Shown here piece by piece: positions 30,140 through 46,790 of a DNA stretch of 64,000 nt. The position numbers were made by a program, and so were the translations under genes. The stretch is from positions 64,001 through 128,000 of the forward strand of contig CAVRVY010000001.1 in the NCBI GenBank assembly GCA_963724765.1, read 5' to 3'. Under the pieces are notes generated by a model that saw only the letters and a list, made by a program, of their open reading frames with translations, was not told the DNA's origin and searched no databases. How positions within the stretch are numbered: the stretch's first letter is position 1; every line of letters begins with the position of its first letter. This DNA comes from an uncultured delta proteobacterium (lineage in GTDB: Bacteria; Desulfobacterota; Binatia; Binatales; Binataceae).

Positions 30140-30186
30140 GCGGCGCGGCCAGCCGCGAACATCCTGGCGCGGATCGGATTTCCCGG

Positions 30187-30240
30187 TGGTGCGAGAGGGG
30201 GGACTTGAACCCCCACGCCTTGCGGCACCGGATCCTAAGT
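30187..30240 (-). repeat. att site: 3' part of tRNA-Leu(TAG) with the original CCA
   Basis: 30190-30240 is identical to 46523-46573 (51 bp). Identity ends just past the anticodon loop; TGG (CCA on the minus strand) at 30187-30189. Confidence 0.95.
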
Positions 30241-30358
30241 ACTACTCCCGTACCTCCACGATCCATCGCCACCGATCACTATTCAACGCCATCAAGCACT
30301 TTCGCGCCGGTCGATGTTGCTCGATAAGCGCGCTCCTACCTATCGCGCTCGATAGTTC

Positions 30359-30376
30359 CGCCACAATTACGCCACA
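30359..30376 (+). repeat. Arm-type site CGCCACAATTACGCCACA, left copy
   Basis: Identical 18-mer at 46439-46456; both copies lie just inside the att sites. Confidence 0.8.
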
Positions 30377-30566
30377 GCGCAATAGCCATTCTGTCGGCCA
30401 TTCCGAACGTGACGCACTGGATATGGCATCCTCTGCGTCATCAAAAGACGTTGATTCTAAAGGGAAATTTGGCGCCTGTGGCTCAAGTGTGGCGCAATTT
30501 CACGACGCTCAACAATGGAATTTTGGGCATTTCGCCCATGAAAACCGGACTGAAAAGGAGGTCTAT

Positions 30567-31013
30567 ATGCGGGTTTGTAACAAGTCTGAGGCGTTCAAAC
30601 TGGCACGGCAACTCAACGACGATGGCGACGCGCCGCTCGATGACGCGACGCTCGATCGCTACTGGAACGATTACCGTATCGCAGAGTTGCCCGAGCCGTT
30701 GGATGCGATCGTTCTACAGTGCTTCGTCGCGCTGCCCGCGACAGTCGCGGTGCGGTTGATGCAGGTCGCCGCCTATCACGAGCCGGTGAACGGTGTCTTC
30801 GACGACAGCGTGGTAACTCAGGTGCTGAAGATGCGATCGGCAGGTGTGGAGGAGTGGCTGCTACTCGCGCAAAGCGGTTACTACATCGGCTTGGCTCAAC
30901 GCGAGATGTGCGGGTTCGATCTCGGCGCCGGGTTGCGCCGCATCGCGCGTTGCAGCCAGTTCCTCGTCGAATGGATCGAGGCGCATCGGTTTGCGCCGTT
31001 GCGCGCGCTGTAG
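30567..31013 (+). CDS. Hypothetical protein
   Basis: AAGGAGG RBS before ATG 30567; 148 aa; no motif recognised. Confidence 0.6.
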   Translation: MRVCNKSEAFKLARQLNDDGDAPLDDATLDRYWNDYRIAELPEPLDAIVLQCFVALPATVAVRLMQVAAYHEPVNGVFDDSVVTQVLKMRSAGVEEWLLLAQSGYYIGLAQREMCGFDLGAGLRRIARCSQFLVEWIEAHRFAPLRAL

Positions 31014-31025
31014 CGAGGCGATGGG

Positions 31026-31057
31026 CGCCTCCGTCGTTCCTAGGAACGACGGAGGCG
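31026..31057. repeat. Perfect 32-bp palindrome with no spacer
   Basis: CGCCTCCGTCGTTCCT|AGGAACGACGGAGGCG. Confidence 0.9.
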
Positions 31058-31208
31058 GCGTCGAGGAGGGCATCCATCCAAGGCACGATGCCTTAGCTTA
31101 GTGGCATGAATTTTGTGCCCGAACTTCCCTGGGATAGGGATGGGTCCCATCGCCCAAAACAGCGACAGCACCTTTGCTCGCGACGAACTTGAATAGGCGG
31201 TAGATCCC

Positions 31209-31523
31209 ATGAATCAAACTAAGTCGATAGAAGCGAAGGCCGCAATCCTGCGGCTGATGGTCGCGGCTGGTTGGCCGCAGAAGATCGGACTGAACGACAA
31301 GCAGCACTGCGCGCATAACCGCCTGAGTCTCGACACCCTTACGGTTCACACCTTCTGGACCAAGGGGCACGACCCGTTCATCTACGATCCGGCGCTCCAT
31401 GTCGTGACGCGGGGCAAAACCCGAGACGCGGCGCTAATCGCGATGGTCCATCAGCGCCAGGACCTAGCGCGCCGCGATTCTGGCCGCGCGGGCACCGTCC
31501 CTGCCGAAAATCCCGAGGTCTAG
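31209..31523 (+). CDS. Hypothetical protein
   Basis: 104-aa ORF co-oriented with its neighbours. Confidence 0.5.
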   Translation: MNQTKSIEAKAAILRLMVAAGWPQKIGLNDKQHCAHNRLSLDTLTVHTFWTKGHDPFIYDPALHVVTRGKTRDAALIAMVHQRQDLARRDSGRAGTVPAENPEV

Positions 31524-31565
31524 TCCGTCCCAGGGCGCCTGGGCGGCGTAGAGGAGGTAGATCAC

Positions 31566-32012
31566 ATGAATCTCACATTGGACGCGATCCTCTCGGACGG
31601 CCTCGACGCCGCCGGAGAACTCGAACCGCACGCGATGCTCGCGCTCGCCATGAAGCTACAGGGCGCCGCTTCGATCCTCTTCGCGCGCGCGGTCGCCGCG
31701 CTGGCATCCACGGCTGCGAGTGCGACTACGGAGCGCGCGCCCAAGCCCGACAACCGATTAATCTCGATCAAGGACGCAGCGTTACGCATCAACAAACATC
31801 GAAGCTGGCTGGATCGCCACGGCCGCCGACTCGGCATCATGATATGCGATCCGACGACTGGCCGTGCGCTGGGATGCTCGGAGGCGGCAATTCGGCGCTT
31901 CGTCGAAGGAGGCGCAACCAACGCCCCACCACCACCACGCGCACACGCATCGTTCGTGAGCGTTGATGAATTGCGCGCCCAGGAACGTGAAAGCAGAGCG
32001 AGGAGGCAGTGA
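31566..32012 (+). CDS. Excisionase-like HTH protein (module 1)
   Basis: GAGGAGG RBS; LISIKDAALRINKHRSWL HTH; same architecture as 44486-44887; directly precedes the integrase. Confidence 0.6.
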   Translation: MNLTLDAILSDGLDAAGELEPHAMLALAMKLQGAASILFARAVAALASTAASATTERAPKPDNRLISIKDAALRINKHRSWLDRHGRRLGIMICDPTTGRALGCSEAAIRRFVEGGATNAPPPPRAHASFVSVDELRAQERESRARRQ

Positions 32013-32013
32013 T

Positions 32014-33321
32014 ATGGACAGCGACGAGTTGGACATCGCGCAAGTTCGTGAGCTGCTCGACGCGCTCGGCGACAGCGGCCCGAGTGATCCGCGCTATCGC
32101 CTCATTCGCGCGTGGGTGCTCGCGCACCGTCGCAAGGCGCGCGCACTCTGGCAGCGAGGCGATATCTGGTGGACGCGAATCTGGGTGCCGCGCGAGCACC
32201 GCGAATGGCGCGAAAGCACCGGCATCAGAGTGTCGGATGATCCCAACGGGCGCAAAGCGATGATCGTGGCGCGGCAGCGCATGGTCGATGTCGATAAGGG
32301 GAAACCCACGCCCGACGCTCAAACGACATACGCAGATTTGCGCGAACTGATCCTTCGCGACTATGAACTCAACGGCAAGAAGCGTAAAGCACTCCTCACC
32401 CGCCTGCTTCACCTCGATCCCTACTTCCGCGATTACAAGGCCGCGCGCATCACTTCGGCCGTCTTTGATCGCTATGCTACTGAACGCCACAACGCGGGCG
32501 CCGCCAACGGCAGCATCAACCGCGAGCGCGACGTACTCAATCGCATGTTCGTCCTGGGCGTGCGCGCGGGATTGAGTATCGTCGCGCCCTACTTTACGCG
32601 ATTGAAGGAAGCGCCGCCTCATGCTGGGTTCTTTGAGGCTAAGGAATTCGCCGCCGTACTCGCGCACCTTCCCAATTATCTACAACCGCCGATGCAGACT
32701 GCCTACCTGACCGGCTGGCGCCTAAATGAAGTGCTGACCCGCAAACCCGAGCACGTCGATCTCAACGCTGGCCCTGGTTGGCTACGACTCGATCCCGGTG
32801 AAAGCAAGACCGGTAAGGCGCGTATGTTTCCTCTCGCCGGCGGTTTGCGCGATCTCGTCGTCGAGCAACTCCGCGTCAGCGCCGAGCGCGGATCACCGTG
32901 GCTATTCCCATCGCGGTTGGCGCTGCTGGGCTACGATGACGGGCGTGCGCTCACGGCGAATGTGCGCTTTTATCGCGCCTGGCATGATGCGTGTGAAAAG
33001 GCCGGAGTGAAAGGACGTATTCCGCACGACTTTCGCCGCACCGCCTACCGGAACCTCTTACGCGCCGGAATCCCCAAGCCTATAGCGATGGCCTGGATCG
33101 GGCACGAGACGGATGCGATGGCGAAGCGCTACGCGATCATGGATGAGGGATTATTTGGCGAGTTTTCGACGCGCCTGACGAACGCCTATGGCGCGCTACC
33201 CATCACAGAGAACGCGATGGAGATTGCGCCGGAGGGTGTCGCGCTAGAGGGCGTCGCGAAGCTGCCCGAACTTGTCTGCCATGACGATGGGTTCCCATCC
33301 ACGTCCCTGATAGGGCGGTAG
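32014..33321 (+). CDS. Tyrosine recombinase/integrase 1
   Basis: TGWRLNE (R), ESKTG (K), HDFRR (HxxR), IGH, KRY (Y): catalytic set appears intact. Confidence 0.92.
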   Translation: MDSDELDIAQVRELLDALGDSGPSDPRYRLIRAWVLAHRRKARALWQRGDIWWTRIWVPREHREWRESTGIRVSDDPNGRKAMIVARQRMVDVDKGKPTPDAQTTYADLRELILRDYELNGKKRKALLTRLLHLDPYFRDYKAARITSAVFDRYATERHNAGAANGSINRERDVLNRMFVLGVRAGLSIVAPYFTRLKEAPPHAGFFEAKEFAAVLAHLPNYLQPPMQTAYLTGWRLNEVLTRKPEHVDLNAGPGWLRLDPGESKTGKARMFPLAGGLRDLVVEQLRVSAERGSPWLFPSRLALLGYDDGRALTANVRFYRAWHDACEKAGVKGRIPHDFRRTAYRNLLRAGIPKPIAMAWIGHETDAMAKRYAIMDEGLFGEFSTRLTNAYGALPITENAMEIAPEGVALEGVAKLPELVCHDDGFPSTSLIGR

Positions 33322-33543
33322 GTTGTCGCAAAGGAAACGACCGCAACGGACACGATAACGCCCTGGGGTCATCAGTCGAAGCGCGCGGGAAAGTGGTCGC
33401 CGTTGGGGCCTCGCTAGCCATTTGTCGCGATTTACTATGATCGCGTCACAGTGTCGCAATCTACGGAAAATCTTTGTCGCGAGACGAATATAGTATTGGT
33501 CTGCTTTTTGTGCGTGGTAATTTAACCATGAGGTGATCGAGAA

Positions 33544-34017
33544 ATGGATAATCAAACAGAGTCCGGGAAAAGCCCGGCAGACTTGGCGATTGCGGAAGTG
33601 GCAGGGATAGTCCGGGCGTTGCCGGACGACCTGACGCTGGAACAGCTTCAGGGCATCGTAGCCACGGTGGCGGACGCATTCAGCGTTGACCTGGAAGAGA
33701 TTGACGGGTCAGTGCGCGAGGGCGCGGACGAAGCCGCGAAAGAAGCGGCAGCGGAATCCCTCACAGAAGCGGCTCGCGAAGAAACCGACAACGCATATCT
33801 CGCCTACATGCATGAGCACTCAGAAGCGGCCATCGAGGCCGCGCTTGAGCCCGTGCGCGAGAAAGCCCGCGCGGCGGCGGACGCTGCCTTCGAGGAAGAG
33901 CAGGAAGCGGATCAAAAGCGCTACGACGCGGCTTACGCGGAAGCATATCGCGACGCCTACCGCGCCGGGTTGCTTGAGGACGACAAGCTCAAGCTCAATC
34001 GCCTTCTACACCAATAG
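33544..34017 (+). CDS. Acidic Ala/Glu-rich helical protein
   Basis: GAGGTG RBS; 157 aa, coiled-coil-like. Confidence 0.65.
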   Translation: MDNQTESGKSPADLAIAEVAGIVRALPDDLTLEQLQGIVATVADAFSVDLEEIDGSVREGADEAAKEAAAESLTEAAREETDNAYLAYMHEHSEAAIEAALEPVREKARAAADAAFEEEQEADQKRYDAAYAEAYRDAYRAGLLEDDKLKLNRLLHQ

Positions 34018-34284
34018 GACTTTGGTTAGGAGACGATCCTGCGCGTGTCGATCGGCTTAAGGTTGTCAGATAACCTTTTTGCCCGCGTCCTGATGATCGA
34101 TGCTGGTTAGCCTTGGCCTTCGTCGCAAGCACTGTAGAGGCGAGGCGCTGTGTGCTCGCTCGTGCTCCCCTCCGGTCCGCACGGCTCGCCATAAGCGATG
34201 TGGCGACACGAAGCGTGCGGAGCGTCGCGCGGGCGCTGAAGCACGGGGACTACCAACAGACTTGCGGAGCCACGGGGCGCCCCC

Positions 34285-35541
34285 TTAATTCGCGGACTTT
34301 TCCATTTGCTCGCAAGCGTCGCGCTCTTTGTCGCGTAGTCTGCGTAAATTCTCGATCCTCTCGGTCTTTTGCTCCGTGTCATACACGGCGTGAGTAGGAC
34401 GGCTTTCGGTCTCCGCTATTTCCGATGTCCATTTGCCCACGCCCGCCCAGCATTCCTTTAGCCGTTTGGCCCACAGCCCCTCTGCATGCTCGCGCTCTTC
34501 GTGCAAGTCGAGCTGCTGTGCTCTCCGTTGAGTGTCCTGTTGAATCTGCCAGGCTTCAGCCGAGCCGGGTTTTTCGACTTCCGTAACTGCGAAGTGACGT
34601 TCAGCCAATTTCTGTCCGTCCAAATAGAACCTGATTGTGTAGGTGCCGGGTTGAAAGGCGCCGCCTGAGTTGCTGCCGACCTTGCCGCTAAAGGTCACGG
34701 TGTCCTGGTCAGCGTTCACCGTCTCGAAGTCATCGACACTCCCAAGTATCTGTCCTTGAGGTCCGTAAAAAGTGGCGTGGAGGCGGTAGCGTTTGATGTT
34801 GGAATCCGGAGGCGAGGTGTTCCTAAAAAAAGTCTGCCAGTTCACAAAGAGGAGCTTAAATACATCAAACGTGCTGGCTGGGGCCGAGAGTGGAAGCCCG
34901 TATCTCGTGGTGTTTTGAAGGACGATGTTCGATAGCGTCAACGATGCATGAGTATTTGGTATGGCTCTGGCTATTGTCGCAGGGAGGGCGCTCTTCTTAT
35001 GGGCAGCTAAAGACGCAGAAGCGGCGGGTGCAACGCACGCAATCTTCGAATCGCCGATAATCTTAGCCGGATGGTCGCGATCCAGCGCTACGGAGGCCAT
35101 ACCGGCGCCCTTGACCACGATCCACGGCAGTATGTTCACTTGGATATATGCTGGGGGACTGCCACTTGAACCGCTCAGTATTTCTAGCGGCCACTGAAAA
35201 GAAAACTCCTCCCCCGGCCACAGCACTGGCGCGGTCGGCGCAACCGGTATGCCCCGATGTGCCACAGCACTGTCTCTCTCCATAATGAAGGCATCGTTCT
35301 TTGTGTATCCCTTGACTGTAAGCTGGAACTTCTCGGGCAGCGGTTTTGACGTTGCGTTTGCGACCCCGATTTTTATGCCGTGAGCGCTGTCGCACTCTGC
35401 CTCGATAACGCGGAATGCCGGCGTTTCTGGATCACTCGGCCGTTTTTCGGGTTTCGCGACTAACGCGCGGCCGAAGAGCACGAGCGCAATGCCCGCTAAC
35501 AGTGCGCACGCGACAACAGCGCTCAGGGTTCTAGGGTTCAC
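34285..35541 (-). CDS. Membrane-anchored exported protein with beta-rich domains and C-terminal coiled coil
   Basis: N-terminal TM helix, PGTYTIRFYLDG Ig-like end; lower GC than flanks. Confidence 0.7.
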   Translation of the reverse strand: MNPRTLSAVVACALLAGIALVLFGRALVAKPEKRPSDPETPAFRVIEAECDSAHGIKIGVANATSKPLPEKFQLTVKGYTKNDAFIMERDSAVAHRGIPVAPTAPVLWPGEEFSFQWPLEILSGSSGSPPAYIQVNILPWIVVKGAGMASVALDRDHPAKIIGDSKIACVAPAASASLAAHKKSALPATIARAIPNTHASLTLSNIVLQNTTRYGLPLSAPASTFDVFKLLFVNWQTFFRNTSPPDSNIKRYRLHATFYGPQGQILGSVDDFETVNADQDTVTFSGKVGSNSGGAFQPGTYTIRFYLDGQKLAERHFAVTEVEKPGSAEAWQIQQDTQRRAQQLDLHEEREHAEGLWAKRLKECWAGVGKWTSEIAETESRPTHAVYDTEQKTERIENLRRLRDKERDACEQMEKSAN

Positions 35542-35558
35542 GCATGCTCCAACTCTCG

Positions 35559-36539
35559 CTAAGACGATGCGGTCTTCCTGCGCCGCCCACTTAGTATCTG
35601 CTGCTTACGGCGATTCGTGCACCTGTCCGAGCACGACCGTTGACTTGAATGGCGGGCATAAAAGTAACGTCCGCAGCGCGGGTTTCGGCACACCCGTATG
35701 CGCTGCAAACCCGCGTCGCCCAAGTCCTCGAAGATCATTTGCAGTGCCGCGTAAGCGTGATCGATCCAGCTTTCTCCCGGCCAGTCGGGCGCTTCGTCGT
35801 CTTCATCTTGTGTGACGCGATGCTCGTGGGCGGCTATGTGGATAGTCAGACCAATCCTGCGCAAGAAGCCATAGAGCTGCCAGGCGTCGGGTCTGTCGCT
35901 TGCGATGAACCATGCCAAGACCGGATGTTGGGGTCCGGCGTTGGGTTTTTCCGCCCGCGCTTTGAAAACTCTGAGCATGTCCGCGAATCCGACGCTTCGT
36001 GCGAAGTCCTCGTAAAACTGCGTGCGTTCGACGGCGCGCTCGGCGGTCTCGCAATCGGTCGGGCGATTATTCGCAACGTCGGAAGCAGACCAGCGGATTC
36101 CACGCTCACTCAATTCGGTTTTGACTCTAAGATAATTGCCCTCAAACGACGATAACCCATCGCGCCCGATCCAGTTTGCGGCTTCGATGAAAGCCTTGAG
36201 CGCCGCCAGCCGGTTGCGGCGCTGCGCTCCCGTAAGCGTAGTAAGCGCGTCGCCAGTTAGGCGTTCGTTTCTCTCGCGGGCGAGCTTGCGGATAAGCGAC
36301 TGGCTAAAGGGGCCACCAAACGCGTCGGGCCAGTGCAGGGCGATATAGGCCAGTCGGGTGATTGGTAATGGGATCGTGTCTTTTGCGGCGGCGCTCGCAA
36401 CCAGTCTCTCAAAGGCGTCGGGATCGTAGCTCGCCAATACCGCATCGCAGAAGTCCGTGGCGGCTTGGCTACCGGGTTCGAGGCTTTGTTGTTCGCTGAA
36501 GCTGGTAGTTGGGGTTGATTCGTGACGATTAGTCATCAT
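35559..36539 (-). CDS. CGNR-type zinc-finger protein
   Basis: C-terminal RVCRNPRCGRYFY...SCSDRC; divergent from the AlpA-like gene. Confidence 0.75.
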   Translation of the reverse strand: MMTNRHESTPTTSFSEQQSLEPGSQAATDFCDAVLASYDPDAFERLVASAAAKDTIPLPITRLAYIALHWPDAFGGPFSQSLIRKLARERNERLTGDALTTLTGAQRRNRLAALKAFIEAANWIGRDGLSSFEGNYLRVKTELSERGIRWSASDVANNRPTDCETAERAVERTQFYEDFARSVGFADMLRVFKARAEKPNAGPQHPVLAWFIASDRPDAWQLYGFLRRIGLTIHIAAHEHRVTQDEDDEAPDWPGESWIDHAYAALQMIFEDLGDAGLQRIRVCRNPRCGRYFYARHSSQRSCSDRCTNRRKQQILSGRRRKTASS

Positions 36540-36620
36540 TGTCTACCAACTACAATATAGCATGAGAGGCAGTGAAATGCGCAGTACACGCGAGGTCGGC
36601 AACATCGATAAGGAGCATCA

Positions 36621-36822
36621 GATGGGAGAGATTCTAGATACGAAACAAGCTGCGGTTTTCCTGGGTCTCCGCCCCGGCACGTTGGCGGTTTGGCGGATGG
36701 AAGGCCGTGGTCCGGGTTACGTGAAGCTCGGGAAGCGAGTTGTCTACCGGCGCGATGCGCTGGAGCGGTTCCAGGCGGCACACACGATCGACCCCGAACG
36801 CGACCCGCAGCATGCCGCCTAA
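36621..36822 (+). CDS. AlpA/HTH_17 excisionase-like regulator
   Basis: AAGGAG RBS; LDTKQAAVFLGLRPGTLAVWRMEGRGPGYVKLGKRVVY. Confidence 0.9.
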
Positions 36823-37202
36823 CATGAATGAATTTTCGGTAGAGGTGCGATGCCACGGCTGTGGCGGCCGTGGCGATCGCCGACAACATGGAGAACCAGC
36901 TACGTGGAGACCCCCACAATATCATCTTCATTTGACAGACCAATACCCGAAGCTGACGCCTCCACATCGCGTCGCTGGCAGATCGAGACACCCACTGGCC
37001 GCCTAGAAGTCCTCGCGGACGACTGCAACGTCGGTGAGGCCGGTGTTCTTCACTTCAGCGACTATGGGCCGCTCGGCGAAATGGACGGGCGGCGCATCGT
37101 CATATGCGTCATCGGCCCGGCGGGATGGACGCGCTTAATCCCACCACCATCCGCTTTCGACGATGACGATGACGACGCAGCGGCTTCAGCGAGCGCACGA
37201 TC

Positions 37203-37703
37203 ATGAGCACGACGAGCACGCCGACTATCGCGCGGCCATCCACATCGATCGCGATCGATGCTGAGTGGTTCGAGCGTCTCGGCCGCCGCTATTTCTACGC
37301 GCACCGCGCATTCCCGCAGACCATCGCGCGCAGCAACCGCCAAGTGTCACTCAAAGTAGCCGCGATTAACTTCGCGCACTTCCGCGACCAGGGCGGACCC
37401 AATCAAACCCCGTGTGACCGCTACGGCGTCGATGCTGAAGTGCCGGCGCTCTTTGAACGTGAATTCCTGCGCCGGGCGACGCCCTCATTGATTCTCGACA
37501 TGCTCGGTGAGATCGAAGCGCTGCACAATGTCGTTTTGGATTTGGACCCGGCTTTTTGCTGGGAACCCAATGTTCGCCGATTCATGAACAAGTTGCGGCG
37601 TCATCCAGATTGGACCGCCAGCCCGCGCGACGAAGAATGTGCACGAGACGAGAGCGCCGAGCGCGACGATAGGTTAACCGTGGGCGGCGACGCGCATGCT
37701 TAA
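37203..37703 (+). CDS. Hypothetical protein
   Basis: 166-aa ORF overlapping the helicase start. Confidence 0.6.
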   Translation: MSTTSTPTIARPSTSIAIDAEWFERLGRRYFYAHRAFPQTIARSNRQVSLKVAAINFAHFRDQGGPNQTPCDRYGVDAEVPALFEREFLRRATPSLILDMLGEIEALHNVVLDLDPAFCWEPNVRRFMNKLRRHPDWTASPRDEECARDESAERDDRLTVGGDAHA

Positions 37704-38955: not shown

Positions 38956-39143
38956 TAATAATGCTTATATTTACTACTCTTTATTCTGTTCCCATCACTC
39001 GGGAACAACATGGGAACAGCATGGAACAGGGAACAGCATCCGCTTTCTGTTCCCTCGTGTTCCCGTTCTGTTCCCACCTCGACGGGAACAGAATTAAGCC
39101 AATGAACATAAAGGATATTCGGCGTTTTTCGGATTCTGTTCCC
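38933..39143. repeat. Putative replication origin: ~11 GGAACA/TGTTCC iterons in both orientations around an AT-rich tract
   Basis: Copies near 38933, 38986, 39001, 39012, 39023, 39029, 39047, 39057, 39068, 39084 and 39136; AT-rich 38940-38985; directly at the helicase 3' end. Confidence 0.75.
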
Positions 39144-39203
39144 GATTTTTGGGTATGAGGTAGGGTTTCGCCGCTCCGACCCTCCAAAAAACGGTATAAG
39201 CGC

Positions 39204-39536
39204 TTGAAGACACAAGGAAAGTTTCTCGTTCCCCAAGAAAGCGATGTCTCTCCAGTATTCGTGATCGACGCCGGTAGCGATCCCGAAAGCCGTGCCGTCG
39301 CGTTCCAACTGCTCGCCGACCAGGCGAAAGGCGACATCCGACGCCTCGCCAACGGTAGGTGGGAGGCATCGATCCCCGTTCCGTCGCCCGACGGCAACGG
39401 CAACGAAATTCGTTGCTTCGCCCGCACGCGGCGCGATGTCGAATCGACCATCGATGACATCATCGCCATGCTCGTCGATTTCGGCGAGGACGGTACGATC
39501 CGCAACGCCGATGCGAAGAGCGAGGAGATCCAGTAA
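39204..39536 (+). CDS. Hypothetical protein
   Basis: 110-aa ORF in the co-oriented run; start uncertain. Confidence 0.5.
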   Translation: MKTQGKFLVPQESDVSPVFVIDAGSDPESRAVAFQLLADQAKGDIRRLANGRWEASIPVPSPDGNGNEIRCFARTRRDVESTIDDIIAMLVDFGEDGTIRNADAKSEEIQ

Positions 39537-39538
39537 CG

Positions 39539-39961
39539 ATGCCCACATTTGAATTCAGCGACGATCACTATCGCGCGCTCAGCGACTTGCTGCTCGGCAT
39601 CCGCGACGCCCGCCTCGCGTGGCAAGCCGCCAAAGGCAAGGTAGAGGAATGGGACAGCTTCGCTAGTGAAATTCGGCGCGGCGAGCGCGCCGGTGCTCCG
39701 TTGCACACGCTGATCGACGAGGCCGCGTCCTGGGCGTCGGGCTGGTGGCGCAGGGCAAACGCGCGTCTCTCAGCGCGCCCTTCTTTACGAAGTAATACGT
39801 TAGTTAGTAGTGATAGACTATATAAGCATCGAGGTGGTAATCCCAACTTGTCGTCGGACACGACAGGTTCGCCAGCCACATTGCCCGATCTTGGCATAAC
39901 CCGCGACCAATGCGCCTCCGTGCGAGCAACCATGAGCCACGCGATAGTGAGCGATAGCTAA
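39539..39961 (+). CDS. Hypothetical protein
   Basis: GAGGAG RBS; 140 aa; the 3' third is compositionally different. Confidence 0.5.
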   Translation: MPTFEFSDDHYRALSDLLLGIRDARLAWQAAKGKVEEWDSFASEIRRGERAGAPLHTLIDEAASWASGWWRRANARLSARPSLRSNTLVSSDRLYKHRGGNPNLSSDTTGSPATLPDLGITRDQCASVRATMSHAIVSDS

Positions 39962-40314
39962 TGAGAATGCGTAAAGCTGGATCATCATCGCCTCGCCCAT
40001 CGCGCGCTCCGGGCATCAGTCGATTCGGACGCTCCGGGCTCGACTCGCCGTCGTTTCACACCGGGAAAGTTACGGTATTGAAAGCCGACGCCGACAAGCC
40101 TCATCGCTGCAAGCGCTGCAATCGCTCGCCGCTCATCGGATCGCGCTGCGCAAGCTGCGGTTACGATAATCGCGCGTGTCAACTCGCGCGCAATCATCGC
40201 CGTCATCACCCGCGCCAGCTCGACAATATCCTGGGCGATGACCTCGACAACGCCGATGCGGGTTTGTTGGGCGATCTTGAAGATGACGACGCTACCGACG
40301 AGGGCGAACAATAG
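39961..40314 (+). CDS. Small zinc-ribbon protein with acidic tail
   Basis: CKRC...CASC and a D-rich C-terminus. Confidence 0.55.
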   Translation: MRMRKAGSSSPRPSRAPGISRFGRSGLDSPSFHTGKVTVLKADADKPHRCKRCNRSPLIGSRCASCGYDNRACQLARNHRRHHPRQLDNILGDDLDNADAGLLGDLEDDDATDEGEQ

Positions 40315-40348
40315 CCCGCATCGCGAATTGAAGGTGAGGTAATCAACA

Positions 40349-42523
40349 ATGAGTGAAGGAATCGAAGTACGCATCAGCCCAAGTGCTGGCGCTGGCGGCA
40401 AGCGCCTTGCCGAGTCGCCGAGTTTTGCGTCCGACAAGCTCACCGGCACGCAGCAGCGATTCGCCGCGCCCGGCGCCGACGCACGCTCGCAGATCGCCGT
40501 CGAGCAGAAGCTCGTCGCCACGCAAACCGCGCTGGTCGCCGAGATCAAGTCGCTGCGCAAGGCCATGCAGGGCACCGCCGCCGGGTCGGCCGAGCGCACG
40601 GCGCTGAAGGCGCAGATCGACGAGCGCCTCGCGCAGCAAAAGAGCAACTTAAGCGGAGCCTACAACACAGGCGCGGTGGCGCGAGATGCAAAAGCGCTCA
40701 CCGCCGGCAAGGGCGTGGCGATGATGCCCTCCGCGCGCGTACTTGCTCAATCACTCGTCAGTGCCAGCCGCGAGACGCTCCAGGGCAATCCGCTCGGAGC
40801 GCTTAGGCATGCCGTCAGCGGTTTCAACGCCGGACGCTCTCTCGTTGGTGCCGGTGGAGGTGCCGCCGTAGCCGAGGGCGCCGAAGGTGCCGCCGAAGCA
40901 GCTGGAGGTGCCGGTATCGGCACGATGCTCGCCGCCGTCGGCGTCGCTGGCGCCGGCGCCCTGGCCTACAAGGCGTGGGAGGACCCGAACGCCGCCAAGG
41001 CCGTCCTCGGCGCGCCGCTCGCGATCATGGAGGCGAAAAAATATGGCCCGCTGGAGGAGTCGCGCCAGGGCGCCGGCTATCGTGCCGCGCGTGAATTCGG
41101 CGAGAGCGGGCAGTCGATGATCGGATCAACCACTGGCGGCCGTTGGAGTGCACTCGGCATATCGCCTAGCGACGCGACGCAAACGGTTTCGGCGATGCGC
41201 GAGTTGGGCGGCTCGAAGTACGTATCGAATCAAGAAGCATACGCGGGTGCAAAATTGGGTACGTATTTGGGATTTTCGCCCGAGCAAACCGCGCAAGTCG
41301 GCGGCGCGGCCGGGCGCCTCGGTGTCAGTCCCGAAACTGCGATCCGCACCATCGCCGCCGGTGTTGAGCGCGGCAACCAGCAAGGCCGCCAATTCGAGGT
41401 CGCATCGGCCAGTCTCGACTACCTCAAGCAGATCGCCACGTCGGCGGCCGTCAGCGGCACGACCGGTTTAACGGCGATCACGAACCTCACCTCGATATTG
41501 GCCAAAACGGGCATCGCGGCGTTCCAGGGCGCGGGCGGCGTCAGCGCCATCGGCGGCATCGAAGCCGCGCACTCAGCCGACGATATTTTCGGCGTCAAAG
41601 CCATGGGCGCCGCCTTTGCGCAATACGGCGAAGCTTCGATGCTCCGCGGCGCGCACGGCAACATTGCCAAAGCCGAGGAAATCCGCCAGGGCGGTTTCGG
41701 CGGACGCTTTTCGTCGATCTATGCGTCGTCGATCCATGGCGAGATCGCGATGGCGCGCAAGTTCGGCCCTCTCGGGTACGAAGCACTCGAAGAGCAGTGG
41801 GGCATGCCGATCGGTTCCTACATCGATCCGCGCACCGGCAAGCCCGTTAGCGTCAACAGCGCCCTCGACGATCTCGACCAGGCGATCCAAAGCGGCGACT
41901 ATCTGAAGGCCGCGAAGATCCAAAATAGTTTATTAGACAGCGGCTCGAAGAACATTTCACCGATGGCCGCCGCGAGTGCCGGCCTCGCTACGGGAGGCGC
42001 GCTCACCGGCGAAGCGACCCAGCGGACCTATGCCGCTGGTGCACGCCTCGAAACTGCCGGCTTGTCCCTGTTGCGCCGCCACCTCGACGACAAAGCGGGC
42101 GCCTCCGCGCTCGACTACTTATCGAGCACATTGGGTCCGTCGAAGCCGACGCCGGCGCCGGGTCTAGCCTACGTGCCCGAACCGCCGCTGCCGCCTGGCG
42201 GCCTTCCGACACCCCTGGCGACGCCTTTCGCGACCCCCGATGCGCTCCCGACGCCCGGCGCGCCCGCCTATGCCGCCCCAGCCGCAGGTGCCCCGATCGC
42301 GGGCGCGGGCGCGCTCAGCGGGTTAGGCGATAGGTTAGGCGATAGCGTCTCGGGCGGCGTGCTGCTGATCGCCGGATTGCTCGAACGCTTAATCGCCGCC
42401 GTGCAGGGCGGTAGTGCGCTCGGGGCACCATCGCCTGCGCCGACGCCCGCCGCGCCCGCGCCCACGCCCGCGCACGGCCCAATCGCGCCGACCGCCTCAA
42501 CCCCGAAATCGTCGCGCCACTAG
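40349..42523 (+). CDS. Tape-measure-like protein (724 aa)
   Basis: GAGGT RBS; N-terminal coiled coil, Gly/Ala-rich hydrophobic segment (GIGTMLAAVGVAGAGALAYKAW), long amphipathic helical middle, Pro-rich C-terminus. Confidence 0.6.
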   Translation: MSEGIEVRISPSAGAGGKRLAESPSFASDKLTGTQQRFAAPGADARSQIAVEQKLVATQTALVAEIKSLRKAMQGTAAGSAERTALKAQIDERLAQQKSNLSGAYNTGAVARDAKALTAGKGVAMMPSARVLAQSLVSASRETLQGNPLGALRHAVSGFNAGRSLVGAGGGAAVAEGAEGAAEAAGGAGIGTMLAAVGVAGAGALAYKAWEDPNAAKAVLGAPLAIMEAKKYGPLEESRQGAGYRAAREFGESGQSMIGSTTGGRWSALGISPSDATQTVSAMRELGGSKYVSNQEAYAGAKLGTYLGFSPEQTAQVGGAAGRLGVSPETAIRTIAAGVERGNQQGRQFEVASASLDYLKQIATSAAVSGTTGLTAITNLTSILAKTGIAAFQGAGGVSAIGGIEAAHSADDIFGVKAMGAAFAQYGEASMLRGAHGNIAKAEEIRQGGFGGRFSSIYASSIHGEIAMARKFGPLGYEALEEQWGMPIGSYIDPRTGKPVSVNSALDDLDQAIQSGDYLKAAKIQNSLLDSGSKNISPMAAASAGLATGGALTGEATQRTYAAGARLETAGLSLLRRHLDDKAGASALDYLSSTLGPSKPTPAPGLAYVPEPPLPPGGLPTPLATPFATPDALPTPGAPAYAAPAAGAPIAGAGALSGLGDRLGDSVSGGVLLIAGLLERLIAAVQGGSALGAPSPAPTPAAPAPTPAHGPIAPTASTPKSSRH

Positions 42524-42595
42524 ATCGACGTGATTTCGTTGACGGCTTTTTTCCTAACGTAGCAGTCCCAAATTATAAGTCTGGATGAGGTTCAC

Positions 42596-42808
42596 ATGAG
42601 CGACAACTCACCCAAAGCTACGCCCTGGGCCAAGTACCGCGACGCGCGCATCGCCCATGCCCGCGAGCTGCAACAACTCGCCGCCGCCTATCGCGATGCG
42701 CCGCGCTGCGCGAAGTGTCAGATTGTGATTTCCTTGCGCCCCGACGAGGCGTGCTGCATCGCCGACTGCCCGCTGGCGCCATCCACGATGGACCGCAGCG
42801 CCCGATGA
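42596..42808 (+). CDS. Small Cys-rich protein
   Basis: GAGG RBS; CAKC...CCIADCP. Confidence 0.5.
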   Translation: MSDNSPKATPWAKYRDARIAHARELQQLAAAYRDAPRCAKCQIVISLRPDEACCIADCPLAPSTMDRSAR

Positions 42809-42967
42809 CTACTTGACTCGACTCGACTAGCTACTTACTCGGCGGGCTATTAGCGCATTAAAAAAAGGCCGAAGCTCAAACGGTAGAAATCGCTAAAAAT
42901 CTCCGTCTGGCTCCGGCCGGAGCAGCGACGATCTGACGCAAAAGATCGCGCTACCTATGACCGATAT

Positions 42968-43819
42968 TTATAAGGCGCGCCAAATCCTTCCCTGCTCCTC
43001 CCACTGGTTATAGGCGATCGTCGGAATGCCATAGCGCGCGCGCACGCTGGGTGCCACCTGCGCCAACGCGCGCATCGCAGCATCGAGGTTTACGCCGCCC
43101 AACCGCGTTTCCGTACCCGCCGCGTCGTAATTGAGCAGAATATTCGGATCGATCTGCTCGTCCATCATCGCGGCGTGCAAGCGGCTCTTGACGCTGTTAA
43201 AGCTTTTGAGCAACGCGAGCGGACTGAGACTACGGCCGCCGAAAGACTTCGACTGTGTATAGGCATCGCTGTCCATGCCCGGCCTCACCGTGCGCCGCGC
43301 AACTCGGTCGCCGCCGATCCGGCTTCGGCCCTCGCCTTGGCCCTCGCCGAGCTCCACTTCATCTTCATCAGTGGGCTCGACATATTTTTGGCGGTTGAAC
43401 GGCGTGATCTCGCTATCGGCGTGCGCACCAGGGAAGCGAATCTTCGAGGGACGGCCGCTAACCAACATTTCGTGAATCATGTCGGCGTCGGCCTCCAAGT
43501 AGTCGAAATCATCGTCGAGCGCCTGGATGCCCGCCCACTCGCGGTTGGACTCGCGAATATCCTTGCGTCGTGCTCCCTCTGCGCGTCGATCAAAGGCGTC
43601 GGCGTTCGCTTCCATGTAGTCTTTACTGTCGCTCATCTCGCGCACGCTTTGGCTACGGGCGCGCTTCGATTTCACGAGCGCATTGAGATCGTCAACAGCT
43701 TCGGCGAATGTCATTTGAACCTCATTGTGGGGAGTGGGAGTGACGCGGTAGAACCGGCCGTTGAGGAAGTCTCGTACGATGCCCGCGATCCTCATATTGG
43801 AAGTATAACGCTGTTCCAC
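42968..43819 (-). CDS. Acidic hypothetical protein with repeated KS motifs (scaffold-like?)
   Basis: 283-aa ORF; true start may be the downstream ATG (MTFAEAV); contains LVKS, SKSF, LLKSF, SVKS. Confidence 0.6.
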   Translation of the reverse strand: MEQRYTSNMRIAGIVRDFLNGRFYRVTPTPHNEVQMTFAEAVDDLNALVKSKRARSQSVREMSDSKDYMEANADAFDRRAEGARRKDIRESNREWAGIQALDDDFDYLEADADMIHEMLVSGRPSKIRFPGAHADSEITPFNRQKYVEPTDEDEVELGEGQGEGRSRIGGDRVARRTVRPGMDSDAYTQSKSFGGRSLSPLALLKSFNSVKSRLHAAMMDEQIDPNILLNYDAAGTETRLGGVNLDAAMRALAQVAPSVRARYGIPTIAYNQWEEQGRIWRAL

Positions 43820-43861
43820 AGTTAAATGCTATGCTCACGGCAGCGAGGCGAGCAGCGAAAA

Positions 43862-44305
43862 ATGGCCAACCCCAGCAATTTGATCCCGTTCCAGTTCAAA
43901 AAGGGCCAATCGGGCAATCCCAACGGCCGCCCCTCCGACCGCGACGCCGTCGCCCTCGCCATCAAATCGACCCGCGACGGCCTCGAACTGGTCGAGACGC
44001 TTGTCGATCTGATGCGTCACGCGAAGGCGGAAAAGACGCGGTTGGCCGCGACCTGCGAGTTGTGGGATCGCATCTATGGCCGCGTCCCGGCCGGCGAGCG
44101 CCCGTCGCTATTCGGCGCGCTCCAGGGCGTAACCGGGGTAACCTTCGCCGCCAGCTTCGGCCCGCGCCGGGGCGAAGTCGAAGCCAAGGACGCCGCTGTC
44201 GTAGAAGTTGCGGCCATCGTCGAAGCCGACTCCCATCGCGTCGATATGGACGCGCCTGACGACGCCGCAGACGACGCTGAGACACCCGAGACGCCCGTCG
44301 AATAG
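43862..44305 (+). CDS. DUF5681-type / small-terminase-like protein
   Basis: MANPSNLIPFQFKKGQSGNPNGRP, then RLAATCELWDRIYGR and an acidic tail. Confidence 0.7.
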   Translation: MANPSNLIPFQFKKGQSGNPNGRPSDRDAVALAIKSTRDGLELVETLVDLMRHAKAEKTRLAATCELWDRIYGRVPAGERPSLFGALQGVTGVTFAASFGPRRGEVEAKDAAVVEVAAIVEADSHRVDMDAPDDAADDAETPETPVE

Positions 44306-44485
44306 CTGAAACTACCGAATAAAACCAGCTTTGCTCGCCGACGCATGAAAAATTCGGCGCCCTGATCCCGCTAAAATTTCACCGGCGCTAAAGCGACTTG
44401 CGCTGGATGCTGTCGTGATTCCCGGATCGCGACACGTTTTTGCACCCCGTTTGTCAGCCAAAAAGTCGCGATATAGTTCTTCTAG

Positions 44486-44887
44486 GTGCAAGTCTCGCCA
44501 CATCACAACGGCGCTCCGCTCGACGCGCCGCTCACCCGCGACTCGCCGACGCTATCGCTCGACGCGATCGCATCCGCGCCGTCGCCGACCGAGGCGTTGT
44601 CGCGGTTGTCGCCCGATGCGCTCGCGGTGCTGTCGGGCCGGTGCGCGACCATCCAGGCAGCGATCCAGCTCGCGATCATCACGCGCGCGGCCGCGCTAAC
44701 CGACCACGCCAACGCCAACGGTTCCGCGCGCATGCTTAGCGCCGATGAAGCCTGCGCCATCCTGAAACGCCCGAGGCGCTGGCTCTATGACCACGCGAAG
44801 CGCATGCCCTGGATCAAGCGCCTCAGCCGCAAGTCGCTTCTCGTCGATGAGTCGATGATGATGCGCTGGATCGCTTCCCGCCACTAG
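44486..44887 (+). CDS. Excisionase-like HTH protein (module 2)
   Basis: MLSADEACAILKRPRRWLYDHAKRMPWIKRLSRKSLLVDESMMMRWI. Confidence 0.75.
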   Translation: MQVSPHHNGAPLDAPLTRDSPTLSLDAIASAPSPTEALSRLSPDALAVLSGRCATIQAAIQLAIITRAAALTDHANANGSARMLSADEACAILKRPRRWLYDHAKRMPWIKRLSRKSLLVDESMMMRWIASRH

Positions 44888-44924
44888 CGCGCGAGAAATT
44901 TTCACCGTTTCGACACTTTCGAGC

Positions 44925-44953
44925 TTGACAGTTACGTAACTATCAGCTACATT
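44925..44953 (+). promoter_or_regulatory. Near-consensus sigma70 promoter with a palindromic operator in the spacer
   Basis: TTGACA-17 bp-TACATT; palindrome AGTTACGTAACT at 44930-44941; ATG follows 6 nt after the -10. Confidence 0.8.
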
Positions 44954-44959
44954 ACCATC

Positions 44960-45181
44960 ATGTCCGTTACCCATGATCGTGCGTCGGCCAAGCGTCCGCT
45001 GAAGACGCTCAACCAGCTACGCGAGCGCAAGGGGCTTACCCAAGACCAGCTCGCAGCCAAGGTCGGCGTGACGCGGGTATATATCACCCAGCTCGAAACG
45101 GGCGCTCGGGCGAACCCGTCAATCCCGGTGCTCAAGCGCTTGGCGCAGGCCCTCGGGGTCGCGCTCGACGATCTCGTTTAG
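44960..45181 (+). CDS. XRE-family HTH regulator
   Basis: LRERKGLTQDQLAAKVGVTRVYITQLETG...NPS...LAQALGV. Confidence 0.92.
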   Translation: MSVTHDRASAKRPLKTLNQLRERKGLTQDQLAAKVGVTRVYITQLETGARANPSIPVLKRLAQALGVALDDLV

Positions 45182-45193
45182 GGGTAGAAAGCG

Positions 45194-46411
45194 ATGGAGA
45201 CGAAAGCGACTGACAGCAACGTGATCGACAGCAAGGCGACAGCGCAGGGGCAGGCGAAGGAGCGGCAGGCGAAGGGCAGGGCGCGCGGTCTAGGCGCCGT
45301 CTACCTGCGCGGCGGCACCTACTGGATCGCCTACCACCACAACGGCCGGCGCATCCGCGAATCCGCGCACTCGATCAAAGAATCCGACGCCGTGCGCCTC
45401 CTGAAGCGCCGCTACGCCGAAGCCCAGAGCGGCCGTCCGATCGGCCCGCAAATCGAGCGCACCGCGCTCAAATCTCTCACCGGGATGCTGCTCGACGACT
45501 ACCGCGCCAACTCGCGCCGCTCTCTGGATCGCGCCGAAGACGCGGTTACCCATCTCCACGGCTTCTTTGGCGAGGACCGGCGCGCAATCGGCATCACGGC
45601 CGATGCGATTGTCGCCTATCAGGCTCAGCGCCAGCGCGAATCGTGGAACAACCGGCCGGTCGCCGCCGCCACGATCAACTATGAGGTCGCGATGCTCCGG
45701 CGCGCCTTCCGTCTCGGCGCGCGCGCCGGCAAGGTCAGCGTGCGGCCGGAGTTTCCGATGCTCAACGTCGATAACGCCCGCAAAGGTTTCTTCGAGCCGG
45801 ACCAGCACCGTGCGGTGCTCGCGTACCTCCCGCATTACCTGCGCCCGGTTGTTCAAGCCGCTTACATCACGGGATGGAGAACGCAGAGCGAGCTATTGAC
45901 CCGGCAGTGGCGTCACGTCGATCTCGACGCCGGCTGGTTGCGCCTCGATCCCGGTGAGTCCAAGAACGGCGAGGGTCGGATGTTCCCGCTCACGCCCGAG
46001 TTGCGCGCGATCCTCCAGGCGCAGCGCGATCACGTCCGCACGATCGAGCGCGCAACCGAGAAGATCGTTCCCTGGGTGTTCCCGCACGACGACGGCTCGC
46101 CCATCCTCGATTTCCGCTATTCGTGGGCCAAGGCGTGCCGACTCGCGGGCGTGCCCGGACGACTCGTTCATGATTTCAGAAGGACCGCGGTGCGAAACTT
46201 GGAGAGGGCGGGCGTTCCTCGCTCAGCGGCGATGGCGATCACCGGCCACCGCACCGCGACCGTCTACCAACGCTATGCGATCGTCGATGAGGGGATGATG
46301 CGCGAGGCTGCCGACAAGCTGGCCATCCTCCACCGCGCCGGTGCCGAAGCGAGCGCTCCGAGCGCCACACCCAGCAACGGCCGCGTCCTACCGCTCACGA
46401 TCACGCGCTGA
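45194..46411 (+). CDS. Tyrosine integrase 2 (att-proximal)
   Basis: TGWR..SE, ESKNG, HDFRR, TGH, QRY; next to the arm sites and tRNA-Leu. Confidence 0.95.
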   Translation: METKATDSNVIDSKATAQGQAKERQAKGRARGLGAVYLRGGTYWIAYHHNGRRIRESAHSIKESDAVRLLKRRYAEAQSGRPIGPQIERTALKSLTGMLLDDYRANSRRSLDRAEDAVTHLHGFFGEDRRAIGITADAIVAYQAQRQRESWNNRPVAAATINYEVAMLRRAFRLGARAGKVSVRPEFPMLNVDNARKGFFEPDQHRAVLAYLPHYLRPVVQAAYITGWRTQSELLTRQWRHVDLDAGWLRLDPGESKNGEGRMFPLTPELRAILQAQRDHVRTIERATEKIVPWVFPHDDGSPILDFRYSWAKACRLAGVPGRLVHDFRRTAVRNLERAGVPRSAAMAITGHRTATVYQRYAIVDEGMMREAADKLAILHRAGAEASAPSATPSNGRVLPLTITR

Positions 46412-46438
46412 GCGTATCGATGCCTTCCATGATCGAAA

Positions 46439-46456
46439 CGCCACAATTACGCCACA
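46439..46456 (+). repeat. Arm-type site CGCCACAATTACGCCACA, right copy
   Basis: Identical to 30359-30376. Confidence 0.8.
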
Positions 46457-46522
46457 ATAGATCACTCGCGCGCTCACCTATCGTGCCCCAGCCACCTAAA
46501 AACCCCCTTGATTTACTTGGAT

Positions 46523-46603
46523 TGCGAGAGGGGGGACTTGAACCCCCACGCCTTGCGGCACCGGATCCTAAGTCCGGCGCGTCTGCCATTCCGCCACTCT
46601 CGC
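46523..46603 (-). tRNA. tRNA-Leu(TAG), complete, CCA not encoded
   Basis: Full cloverleaf with long variable arm: GCGAGAG...CCGGA CT TAG GA TCCGG...GGGGGTTCAAGTCCCCC CTCTCGC A. Confidence 0.97.
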
Positions 46604-46790
46604 GTGAAGCAAAAACGTATTGTAAATCGCGGCCTTTTTGAAGGATAGGGCTAGACTTTCCGGCCGCCAGAGCGCTGACTGTTGCGTCAAGCTGCGGACG
46701 AAGGGAGGGGGCTGGTTAGCATCGTTCTTAATCGACCAGTCCGCCGCTGCGCGTCACTTAACTGCAGATCGAGGTCCGCGCAAGTCGCCA

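Follow-up and report, generated by a model that had tools for sequence, protein, structure and literature searches.

Gene content and boundaries of the island

The DNA analyzed here is a 64,000-nucleotide stretch (hereafter, the window) of contig CAVRVY010000001.1 from an uncultured soil bacterium of the family Binataceae, and it contains an integrative island of 16,384 bp (16.4 kb; positions 30190-46573) that ends at a tRNA-Leu(tag) gene. Besides genes for integration and replication, the island carries a late block encoding a 724-amino acid (aa) tape-measure-like protein, an acidic 283-aa protein (isoelectric point, 5.6) and a 159-aa DUF5681 protein with a GQSGNPNGRP motif. A scan of the 19 island open reading frames (ORFs) against Pfam, PHROGs and NCBIfam (E ≤ 0.01) revealed no member of a capsid, portal, large terminase subunit (TerL), tail tube, sheath, baseplate or lysis family; 17 of these ORFs were also compared with PADLOC. 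Intact ORFs are densely spaced along the island; with intergenic gaps of no more than ~310 bp, there is no space for sizeable gene remnants. An initial annotation, made from the sequence alone, had described a cleanly bounded 16.4-kb tRNA-Leu island with this late block, in which genes for capsid, portal, TerL, tube, sheath and lysis, and frameshifted remnants of such genes, were not recognised, and the data agree with that description.

The boundaries are marked by TGCGAGAGGGGGGACTTGAACCCCCACGCCTTGCGGCACCGGATCCTAAGT, which is present in the window as two exact 51-bp copies (30190-30240 and 46523-46573) and occurred in this way in none of 100 shuffles. The right copy, assigned as the attachment site attR, forms the 3' 51 nt of the complete tRNA-Leu(tag) gene (46523-46603, minus strand; detected by ARAGORN and by Rfam model RF00005, 60.3 bits), and the left copy, attL (30190-30240), is a duplication of that 3' end. 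Elements that insert at the 3' end of tRNA genes typically leave a repeat of this kind. A search of the window with a 26-nt core, allowing up to three mismatches, disclosed no internal third copy, so the island was treated as one unit of 16,384 bp. Roughly 100 bp inside each end lies an exact copy of the 17-nt motif GCCACAATTACGCCACA (left copy, 30360-30376; right copy, 46440-46456; both on the plus strand). The number expected by chance is 0.08, and the two copies may represent arm-type sites of an integrase. Promoter and terminator scans of the DNA performed no better than on shuffled sequences, and the tRNA was the sole RNA match in an Rfam scan.

The 724-aa tape-measure-like protein

The gene at 40349-42523 (plus strand) encodes a 724-aa protein that lacks a soluble lytic transglycosylase (SLT) domain and that we relate to tape measure proteins (TMPs) through transitive profile homology and gene order. 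Its family is rare: of 5.8 billion clusters, seven belong to it, and two of these seven derive from the same genome as the island; the five homologues outside this genome are full length (724-770 aa) and conserved from end to end. A family-profile search of 1.84 billion representative proteins gave 37 matches at E ≤ 0.001, many of them fragmentary. Among 13 distant matches that were scanned, six carry a C-terminal SLT domain; in seven, the region that aligns to the 724-aa protein matches phrog_13572, "tail protein with lysin activity". Some distant relatives also match phrog_1047, "tail associated lysin", in the same shared region. An hhalign comparison of the 724-aa family with the SLT-bearing relatives scored 98.9% (E = 1.1e-17) over 193 columns, corresponding to residues 233-429. 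The SLT group, in turn, leads to phage proteins in two ways: its profile matches PDB chain 9b45 (gp41 tape measure protein), largely through the SLT part, and it aligns through the shared helical domain with gp017 of Yersinia phage fHe-Yen8-01 (91.9%, E = 7e-7, 285 columns). The gp017 protein (929 aa) is annotated as "endolysin, phage particle associated protein". In the phage genome (OR620963), the sheath gene (013) is followed by three small ORFs (014-016), gp017, gp018 and a baseplate assembly protein, and this annotated order from sheath to baseplate places gp017 at the tape-measure position of a myovirus.

Gene order in a sister island of the same genome (island B, described below) follows the same arrangement. 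The gene directly 3' of its TMP-like gene encodes a 562-aa protein that matches phrog_1015, "tail protein with lysin activity" (E = 1.6e-14), and the family of this protein aligns with gp018 over nearly the whole length (hhalign, 97.8%, E = 1e-12, 411 columns). A tblastn search with the 562-aa protein matched three phage records. The window island lacks such a post-TMP gene.

The protein itself has features expected of a TMP. It is long, contains two hydrophobic segments and has an Ala plus Gly content of 33%, and an AlphaFold2 model from a 7-row alignment is almost wholly helical, with 30 helices and two short strands, at low confidence (predicted local distance difference test score, pLDDT, 44). 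In the ESM Atlas its nearest clusters are viral hypothetical proteins (0.95 and 0.94), and PF10145 tape-measure clusters account for 15 of the 30 matches. Foldseek with the low-confidence model found nothing in the PDB at E ≤ 0.001 and gave weak matches to tape-measure or minor tail proteins in BFVD (best E = 2.6e-3), which we treat as a lead only. Taken together, transitive homology and a gene order conserved with a myovirus tail module indirectly suggest that the 724-aa protein is a tape measure. The designation "tape-measure-like" of the initial annotation can be kept in this sense, although no TMP model matches the protein directly. The lambda gpH rule assigns ~1.5 Å of tail length to each tape-measure residue; by this rule, 724 residues would correspond roughly to a tail of ~110 nm.

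The last ~15 residues of the family (window 42470-42523) occur in two alternative forms, TASTPKSSRH and RPDKKRISMK. The homologue P0002, which is 60% identical to the window protein, ends like P0006, which is 39% identical. Since the endings do not track overall similarity, a C-terminal exchange is hinted at, and it would affect the end that, in tape measures, meets the tail tip.

Additional searches around this family were largely negative. Pattern scans for the 724-aa family in genome and metagenome contigs returned pattern matches and no relative, and a scan of viral contigs with the SLT-bearing relatives found no relative either. A phylum-wide search with the SLT alignment matched 389 of 401 genomes; all the matches listed fall in the SLT domain, so this number is uninformative on the helical domain. 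Within the genome of the island, a search with phrog_13572 gave no match and one with phrog_1047 gave a single match (E = 0.006) on contig C2, outside the islands.

The DUF5681 protein and its divergent partner

The 159-aa protein (43826-44305, plus strand; real start probably the Met at 43862) belongs to the DUF5681 family (PF18932, 29.8 bits against a cut-off of 27.5). In a tblastn search it matched a single phage protein, gp370 of Acetobacter phage phiAX1 (72 aa aligned at 40% identity), likewise a DUF5681 protein, whose gene overlaps the start of a Terminase_6N gene that is followed by portal and coat genes. In the same genome as the island, the DUF5681 genes with the two highest scores (86.7 and 80.8 bits) each immediately precede a gene with a TerL domain. 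DUF5681 was thus found directly upstream of TerL in all three contexts examined, namely phiAX1 and two loci of this genome. The position of these relatives suggests that the 159-aa protein is similar to a small terminase subunit (TerS), as the initial annotation had proposed. The proposal gains positional support; at the level of families, no characterised TerS family in Pfam, PHROGs or NCBIfam matches the protein. The island copy has no adjoining TerL gene, which is what a satellite would be expected to show.

The DUF5681 gene heads an operon, which continues with HTH_17 and integrase genes in the window and with HTH_17 and RepA genes in two related contigs (L029 and L032). Divergent from it lies the gene for the 283-aa protein (42968-43819, minus strand), in which 30% of the residues are charged. 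We found 21 unnamed homologues with sharply conserved short motifs. The protein had no match in Pfam, PHROGs, NCBIfam, PADLOC or a PDB profile search and no usable match in the ESM Atlas; a viral-contig scan with its family found no relative. It had been called scaffold-like at first, a label that we no longer use: neither a family nor a structure match speaks for it, and the protein has no similarity to the protein at the scaffold position in phiAX1. Islands B and C and contigs L029-L032 all retain the divergent DUF5681/283-aa pair, and no other partner of the DUF5681 gene is retained as widely as the 283-aa gene.

Related islands in the same genome and elsewhere

The genome that contains the window comprises four contigs (5.4 Mb, 97% complete) and holds three diverged copies of this island type, the window island and islands B and C. 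Island B (C1:975727-994727) is located in a tRNA-Leu(caa) gene and is bounded by an exact 36-bp repeat, which extends by another 19 bp. Island C (contig C3, ~686.7-706.2 kb) has a different integrase and an inserted DDE transposase, and no att repeat was found for it. Of the 19 genes of the window island, B has 11 and C has 9, with 8 present in both and 12 in at least one of them; the protein identities are 33-77%. The recurring set includes both small end genes, the three ORFs that precede the TMP-like gene, and the genes for the 724-aa, 70-aa, 283-aa, DUF5681, HTH_17 and integrase proteins. The helicases of islands B and C are also of the AAA_25 type and are too diverged to be found by tblastn. 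None of the 50 ORFs of the two islands matched a Pfam capsid, portal or TerL family.

Outside this genome, a member of the same family (G152) has a tRNA-Ser gene, an integrase gene (61% identical), a gene for a helix-turn-helix (HTH) protein and a TMP-like gene, after which the contig ends. Among 164 other genomes of the host family, the TMP-like gene was present in one and the 283-aa gene in one. Three metagenome contigs (L029-L031) and a contig from a Binataceae metagenome-assembled genome (L032) keep the divergent DUF5681/283-aa pair, and three of the four also encode an AAA_25 helicase, the exception being L031, which is only 2.5 kb long. No head genes were present in the stretches seen of G152, L029, L030 and L032. 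The search for related islands that the initial annotation had recommended thus led to islands B and C and to further relatives that share a reduced gene set; homologous islands with full head and tail operons, which it had named as the sign of a deleted prophage, were absent among the stretches examined.

Two of these contigs also differ from the window island in their gene complement. In L032, a 512-aa protein without a Pfam or PHROG match (L032:2335-3873) is encoded between the helicase gene and the gene for a 551-aa protein, itself a homologue of the post-TMP tail protein of island B. The 512-aa protein was considered as a member of the TMP-like family and rejected, as, despite sitting at the corresponding place, it has no relationship to the 724-aa family; it could instead serve as a different tape measure or as some other component of the tail. 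The L030 island, at a tRNA-Leu(caa) gene, carries genes for a DUF5906/VapE-type primase-helicase and a DUF3631 protein (L030:5553-7520 and L030:9814-11220) beside that for the AAA_25 helicase. This extra primase-helicase set therefore indicates that the family swaps replication modules.

Integration, replication and remaining genes

Two tyrosine integrases are encoded in the window island. The first (405 aa; 45194-46411, plus strand; PF00589, E = 6.1e-13; phrog_1, E = 4.4e-41) lies beside the tRNA gene, and the second (452 aa; 31963-33321, plus strand; PF00589, E = 4.6e-18; phrog_1, E = 5.8e-33) lies near the left end. They are 40% identical to each other, and the second, which the initial annotation did not list, is intact. 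A 133-aa HTH_17 protein of the AlpA/Xis type adjoins the tRNA-side integrase (44486-44887, plus strand); its match to PF12728 (E = 2.7e-4) is below the cut-off, and that of its island C homologue is above it (E = 6.6e-9). The start of the second integrase gene is overlapped by a gene for a 148-aa, weakly excisionase-like protein (31566-32012, plus strand; phrog_66, "excisionase and transcriptional regulator", E = 0.0068), and island B keeps a 61% identical copy without an integrase gene at that place.

The replication operon begins with two small ORFs of 118 and 166 aa (36850-37703, plus strand) that have no Pfam match; the 166-aa protein and its counterpart in island B share 69% identity. These are followed by the gene for a RepA-type AAA_25 helicase of 419 aa (37696-38955, plus strand; PF13481, E = 3.3e-29, 102 bits; phrog_906, "DNA polymerase/primase", E = 1.9e-24), which shares 66-68% identity with the copies in L029 and L032. 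No primase domain was detected as such. Directly 3' of this gene lie nine iterons of the form GGGAACAG[AC]AT, five direct and four inverted, in 38933-39143; the array as a whole (38928-39143) is a putative replication origin. Divergent from the operon is the gene for a 326-aa protein with a C-terminal CGNR zinc finger (35559-36539, minus strand; PF11706, E = 1.1e-4, below the curated cut-off). A 64% identical copy occupies the same divergent position in island C, and the protein is a candidate regulator. In island B, the place of this gene, divergent from the AlpA/replication operon, is taken by genes for a HigB-type toxin and an HTH_3 antitoxin-like protein (C1:981086-982008; L008:9087-10009). 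The core resembling phage-inducible chromosomal islands (PICIs) and P4 that had been noticed at first is retained as regards integrase, of which there are two, AAA_25 helicase and iterons; its regulators are less certain, as the HTH_17 and zf-CGNR matches both remain below the cut-off.

The remaining genes of the island have no recognised family. A 148-aa protein at the left end (30567-31013, plus strand) recurs at the corresponding end of islands B and C with 61-63% identity. A 418-aa protein with a hydrophobic N-terminus (34285-35541, minus strand; no match in Pfam, PHROGs, NCBIfam or PADLOC) is probably cargo. A partial relative occurs in contig L030, and another, 45% identical and present as two neighbouring copies, lies at C3:1445877-1446728 of the same genome. 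Upstream of the 724-aa gene are three small conserved ORFs of 110, 140 and 117 aa (39204-40314, plus strand) with 46-60% identical copies in B and/or C and no family match. Relative to the 140-aa ORF, the 117-aa ORF is read in the -1 frame, an arrangement also seen in lambda G/GT. A tail-chaperone frameshift was considered for this pair and dropped: neither B nor C retains the overlap, and the homologues are separated by ~840 nt in island B and by ~160 nt in island C. The gene following the 724-aa gene encodes a 70-aa Cys-containing protein (42596-42808, plus strand) that is 77% identical in island C and 56% identical in island B.

Terminase genes of the genome and metagenomic occurrence of the island

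Four TerL genes are present in the same genome (C3:33586-36817, C3:122544-126084, C3:141416-144741 and C4:1664002-1667169). None has a portal or capsid gene beside it, and many insertion sequence (IS) copies surround them. Two of the four are directly preceded by the strong DUF5681 genes. The TerL cassette at C3:141416-142792 opens with a 458-aa ORF that, as read from its translation, is a putative fusion of a ParB-type nuclease and a DNA methylase. Two TerL cassettes, opposite in orientation and ~17 kb apart, are arranged around a large serine recombinase gene (C3:127639-129327). A search of the genome with phrog_1015 matched island B only.

Part of the island occurs in nine soil, sediment and peat metagenome runs from four studies, with a share of words of 0.05-0.41; no RNA runs were among the listed holders of island sequence. 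When contigs of four runs were compared with positions 28800-47800, short identical pieces were found inside and outside the island at a similar low depth. The search for attachment-site junctions that had been proposed initially gave no att-to-att joint in the soil metagenome contigs of these four runs: none joined 30240 to 46574 or 46522 to 30241, and two joints were listed with sides of ≤30 letters. Because contigs drop rare forms, this result speaks neither for nor against excision.

Comparison with known satellites and phages

Gram-negative PICIs are bounded by att sites and carry an integrase, AlpA, a replication protein with iterons and TerS, without head or lysis genes. The island resembles them in its size class (16.4 kb), its att repeats and integrase, its putative AlpA/HTH_17-type protein, the replication protein followed by an iteron origin, the TerS-like gene and the lack of capsid, portal, TerL and lysis genes. 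It differs from them in the TMP-like gene, the second integrase and the nature of its TerS candidate, a DUF5681 protein. PICIs are also expected to carry no structural genes beyond capsid-redirection factors, whereas the island has the TMP-like gene, and no capsid-size redirection gene was recognised in it. The P4 gene set comprises the capsid-size genes psu, delta and sid, together with epsilon and the alpha primase-helicase. Unlike P4-like satellites, the island has no ORF among the 19 with a head, capsid-size or virion annotation, and only its helicase is in part primase-helicase-like (phrog_906). It is also unlike capsid-forming PICIs (cf-PICIs), as their own capsid, protease, portal and connector genes have no equivalent among the 19 ORFs or, by Pfam, among the 50 ORFs of islands B and C. 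The tail module of phage fHe-Yen8-01 shares with island B the order of gp017 and gp018, which corresponds to that of the TMP-like and 562-aa genes; unlike the phage, with its sheath, tube and baseplate genes, the window island has none of these and also lacks a gp018-like gene and an SLT domain.

Until 2025-2026, satellites were thought to use helper tails unaltered (PMC12987554). According to the same report, virions of the PICI-like elements (PLEs) of Vibrio cholerae have chimeric tails built from a satellite TMP and baseplate hub together with phage parts, PLEs are the first satellites known to build their own tail parts in, and predicted tmp genes occur in other putative satellites, including some cf-PICIs (Nature 2026, PMC12987554). 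As described there, PLEs, which parasitize phage ICP1, are like the island in being integrative, in having their own replication initiator and a TMP gene and in lacking tail tube and sheath genes, and the TMP and BhuB of PLE11 parallel the TMP-like gene and the next tail gene of island B. The island is unlike PLEs in its tyrosine integrase at a tRNA gene, its AAA_25 helicase with iterons and its uncultured soil host. It also differs in that no tail assembly chaperone (TAC), which PLEs encode, was recognised in it. The likeness is drawn from the published description of PLEs.

A second group of TMP-carrying elements are the EPIPs, satellites of Mycolicibacterium aichiense, which are reported to carry TerS and TMP without tail and holin genes and whose TMP has been linked by the authors to altered tail length (PMC12822802). 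In the same account, EPIPs have a serine integrase and genes for a head-to-tail adaptor, a stopper and scaffolding, an actinobacterial host and an isolation as particles; the island has none of those head genes. The proposal of the initial annotation that the island is a new satellite type is too strong, because satellites that encode a TMP themselves have already been reported among PLEs and EPIPs and predicted among some cf-PICIs. Its statement that satellite TMPs are known mainly from Vibrio PLEs holds for the PLEs and has to be widened to the EPIPs and to the predictions in some cf-PICIs. The host is, as stated at the outset, far from Vibrio, in an uncultured soil lineage of the Binataceae. 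The island family shares its logic with the published TMP-carrying satellites, and a satellite-encoded tape measure is in itself already known. Among the papers listed by literature searches on DUF5681 and on phage satellites with a tape measure, none was found to describe this island family.

Interpretation

Our preferred explanation, to which we give a probability of about 0.55, is that the island is a phage-satellite-like integrative element with TerS-like and TMP-like genes and represents one copy of a small family. In such a scheme, infection by a helper phage or its induction would lead to excision of the island by the integrase and the HTH_17 protein, and the island would replicate from the iteron origin by means of RepA. 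The DUF5681 TerS-like protein would then pair with the TerL of the helper, so that island DNA would be packaged into helper capsids. The 724-aa protein would replace the tape measure of the helper inside a contractile tail and give rise to chimeric tails, as in the Vibrio cholerae PLEs, and sister island B would contribute the protein whose gene comes after that of the tape measure in myovirus tail modules. We infer each of these functional steps. A more specific version, which we put forward tentatively, is that the family hijacks helper heads unchanged and rebuilds the interior of the contractile tail, with tail-interior replacement as its main strategy of piracy. Under that version it is possible, if doubtful, that the DUF5681 TerS and a swappable tail cassette (the TMP, sometimes with the next protein) are the sole virion-related genes, and the 283-aa protein could conceivably act as a hijacking or switch factor, a role we suggest with similar reserve.

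Several results weigh against a satellite that carries a tape measure. The 724-aa protein has no direct match in Pfam, PHROGs, NCBIfam, PADLOC or PDB sequences, and of seven family members compared with curated TMP models, one matched phrog_1272 at only E = 0.016. A direct hhalign comparison of the island family with gp017 found nothing, and the transitive link was built on shallow alignments of 7 and 9 sequences. With pLDDT values of 44 and, for the 562-aa protein of island B (8 rows), 34, both AlphaFold2 models are too poor for a fold assignment. In the visible parts of L029, L030 and L032, which keep the DUF5681/283-aa pair, nothing matches the TMP-like gene, which therefore appears to be an accessory and not a core gene of the family; in island C, which also carries an IS insertion, this gene is broken into pieces with stops. 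A helper phage with a homologous TMP, which the initial annotation had suggested looking for, was absent from 50,697 phage records searched by tblastn with the 724-aa protein, and the pattern scan of viral contigs (IMG/VR) likewise gave pattern matches and no relative. The genome of the island contained no match to the PF05065 capsid, PF04860 portal or PF10145 TMP families, other capsid and portal families not having been searched. For the DUF5681 protein, the Pfam model aligns to residues 23-42 only, and the proposed TerS role of the family derives from gene position. One paper also reports a DUF5681 protein in a virion proteome, which is unusual for a TerS. Finally, the divergent layout with DUF5681 at the head of an operon would also suit a regulator.

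That layout would also fit if the island were an integrative, self-replicating element living outside phage particles, plasmid-like or devoted to defence or cargo, with the TMP-like protein as a decoy that poisons tails and the DUF5681 protein as a DNA-binding regulator. A gene that heads a xis-int or an alpA-repA operon and is divergent from the 283-aa gene is a typical regulatory-switch arrangement. The accessory nature of the TMP-like gene also fits, as does the lack of a known helper in the phage-record and genome searches, and blocking of tail assembly has a precedent in the published accounts of Rta of PLE11 (PMC12987554) and of Tai systems. We nevertheless regard such a life outside particles as rather unlikely, though far from negligible. 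No defence family was matched in PADLOC, where the 17 ORFs gave only a weak match, to the helicase, and the 19 ORFs include no recognisable gene for a relaxase, a coupling protein or partition. The TMP-like protein is also conserved over its full length in the five outside homologues, and island B keeps the phage order of the TMP-like gene and the next tail gene, which fits assembly better than a lone decoy. A different objection to the tape measure would be that the 724-aa protein is a membrane-anchored or secreted helical protein, its likeness to the SLT family reflecting no more than a shared helical repeat domain. Its hydrophobic segments and Pro-rich C-terminus, the missing direct TMP-family match and the ubiquity of SLT proteins in bacteria (see the phylum-wide search above) are compatible with this idea, as is the fact that designed helical repeat proteins are the sole PDB matches of the family profile (E = 0.0015). 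We consider it improbable since the shared domain is covered by phage tail-lysin PHROGs and by a protein at the myovirus tape-measure position, the neighbouring gene in island B is homologous over nearly its full length to the neighbour of gp017, and the ESM Atlas and BFVD leads both point to tape measures.

The island could also have arisen from an ordinary prophage by deletion of its head, tail and lysis genes, and a phage-type integrase at a tRNA gene, a phage-like helicase and the TerS-like and TMP-like genes would all be natural remains of one. Decay is seen in the same genome, both in island C, with its broken TMP-like gene and DDE transposase, and in the many IS copies and the four TerL genes without an adjoining portal or capsid gene. 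What makes this origin distinctly unlikely is that the same small gene set is found in three copies at 33-77% identity and in relatives elsewhere, because independent deletions would not converge on one gene set in diverged copies. The intact ORFs throughout, with no sizeable non-coding stretch, the exactness of the att repeats over 51 bp and the absence of structural-gene fragments among the 19 ORFs point in the same direction.

The interest of the satellite-like island family lies in its remote and unstudied host lineage, the rarity of the 724-aa family and the occurrence of three copies in one genome. Its analysis proposes testable functions for two uncharacterised families, with DUF5681 as a TerS and the rare 724-aa family as a tape measure. 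If the satellite interpretation is true, an island family of this kind in a distant soil lineage would support tail manipulation as a general strategy of satellites. It would also provide a first handle on the phages of the Binataceae, a lineage for which no phage was seen when the 50,697 phage records were searched by tblastn with the TMP-like protein. Should the replacement of the tail interior itself prove true, the islands would offer the first view of the biology of mobile elements and viruses in the uncultured Binataceae.

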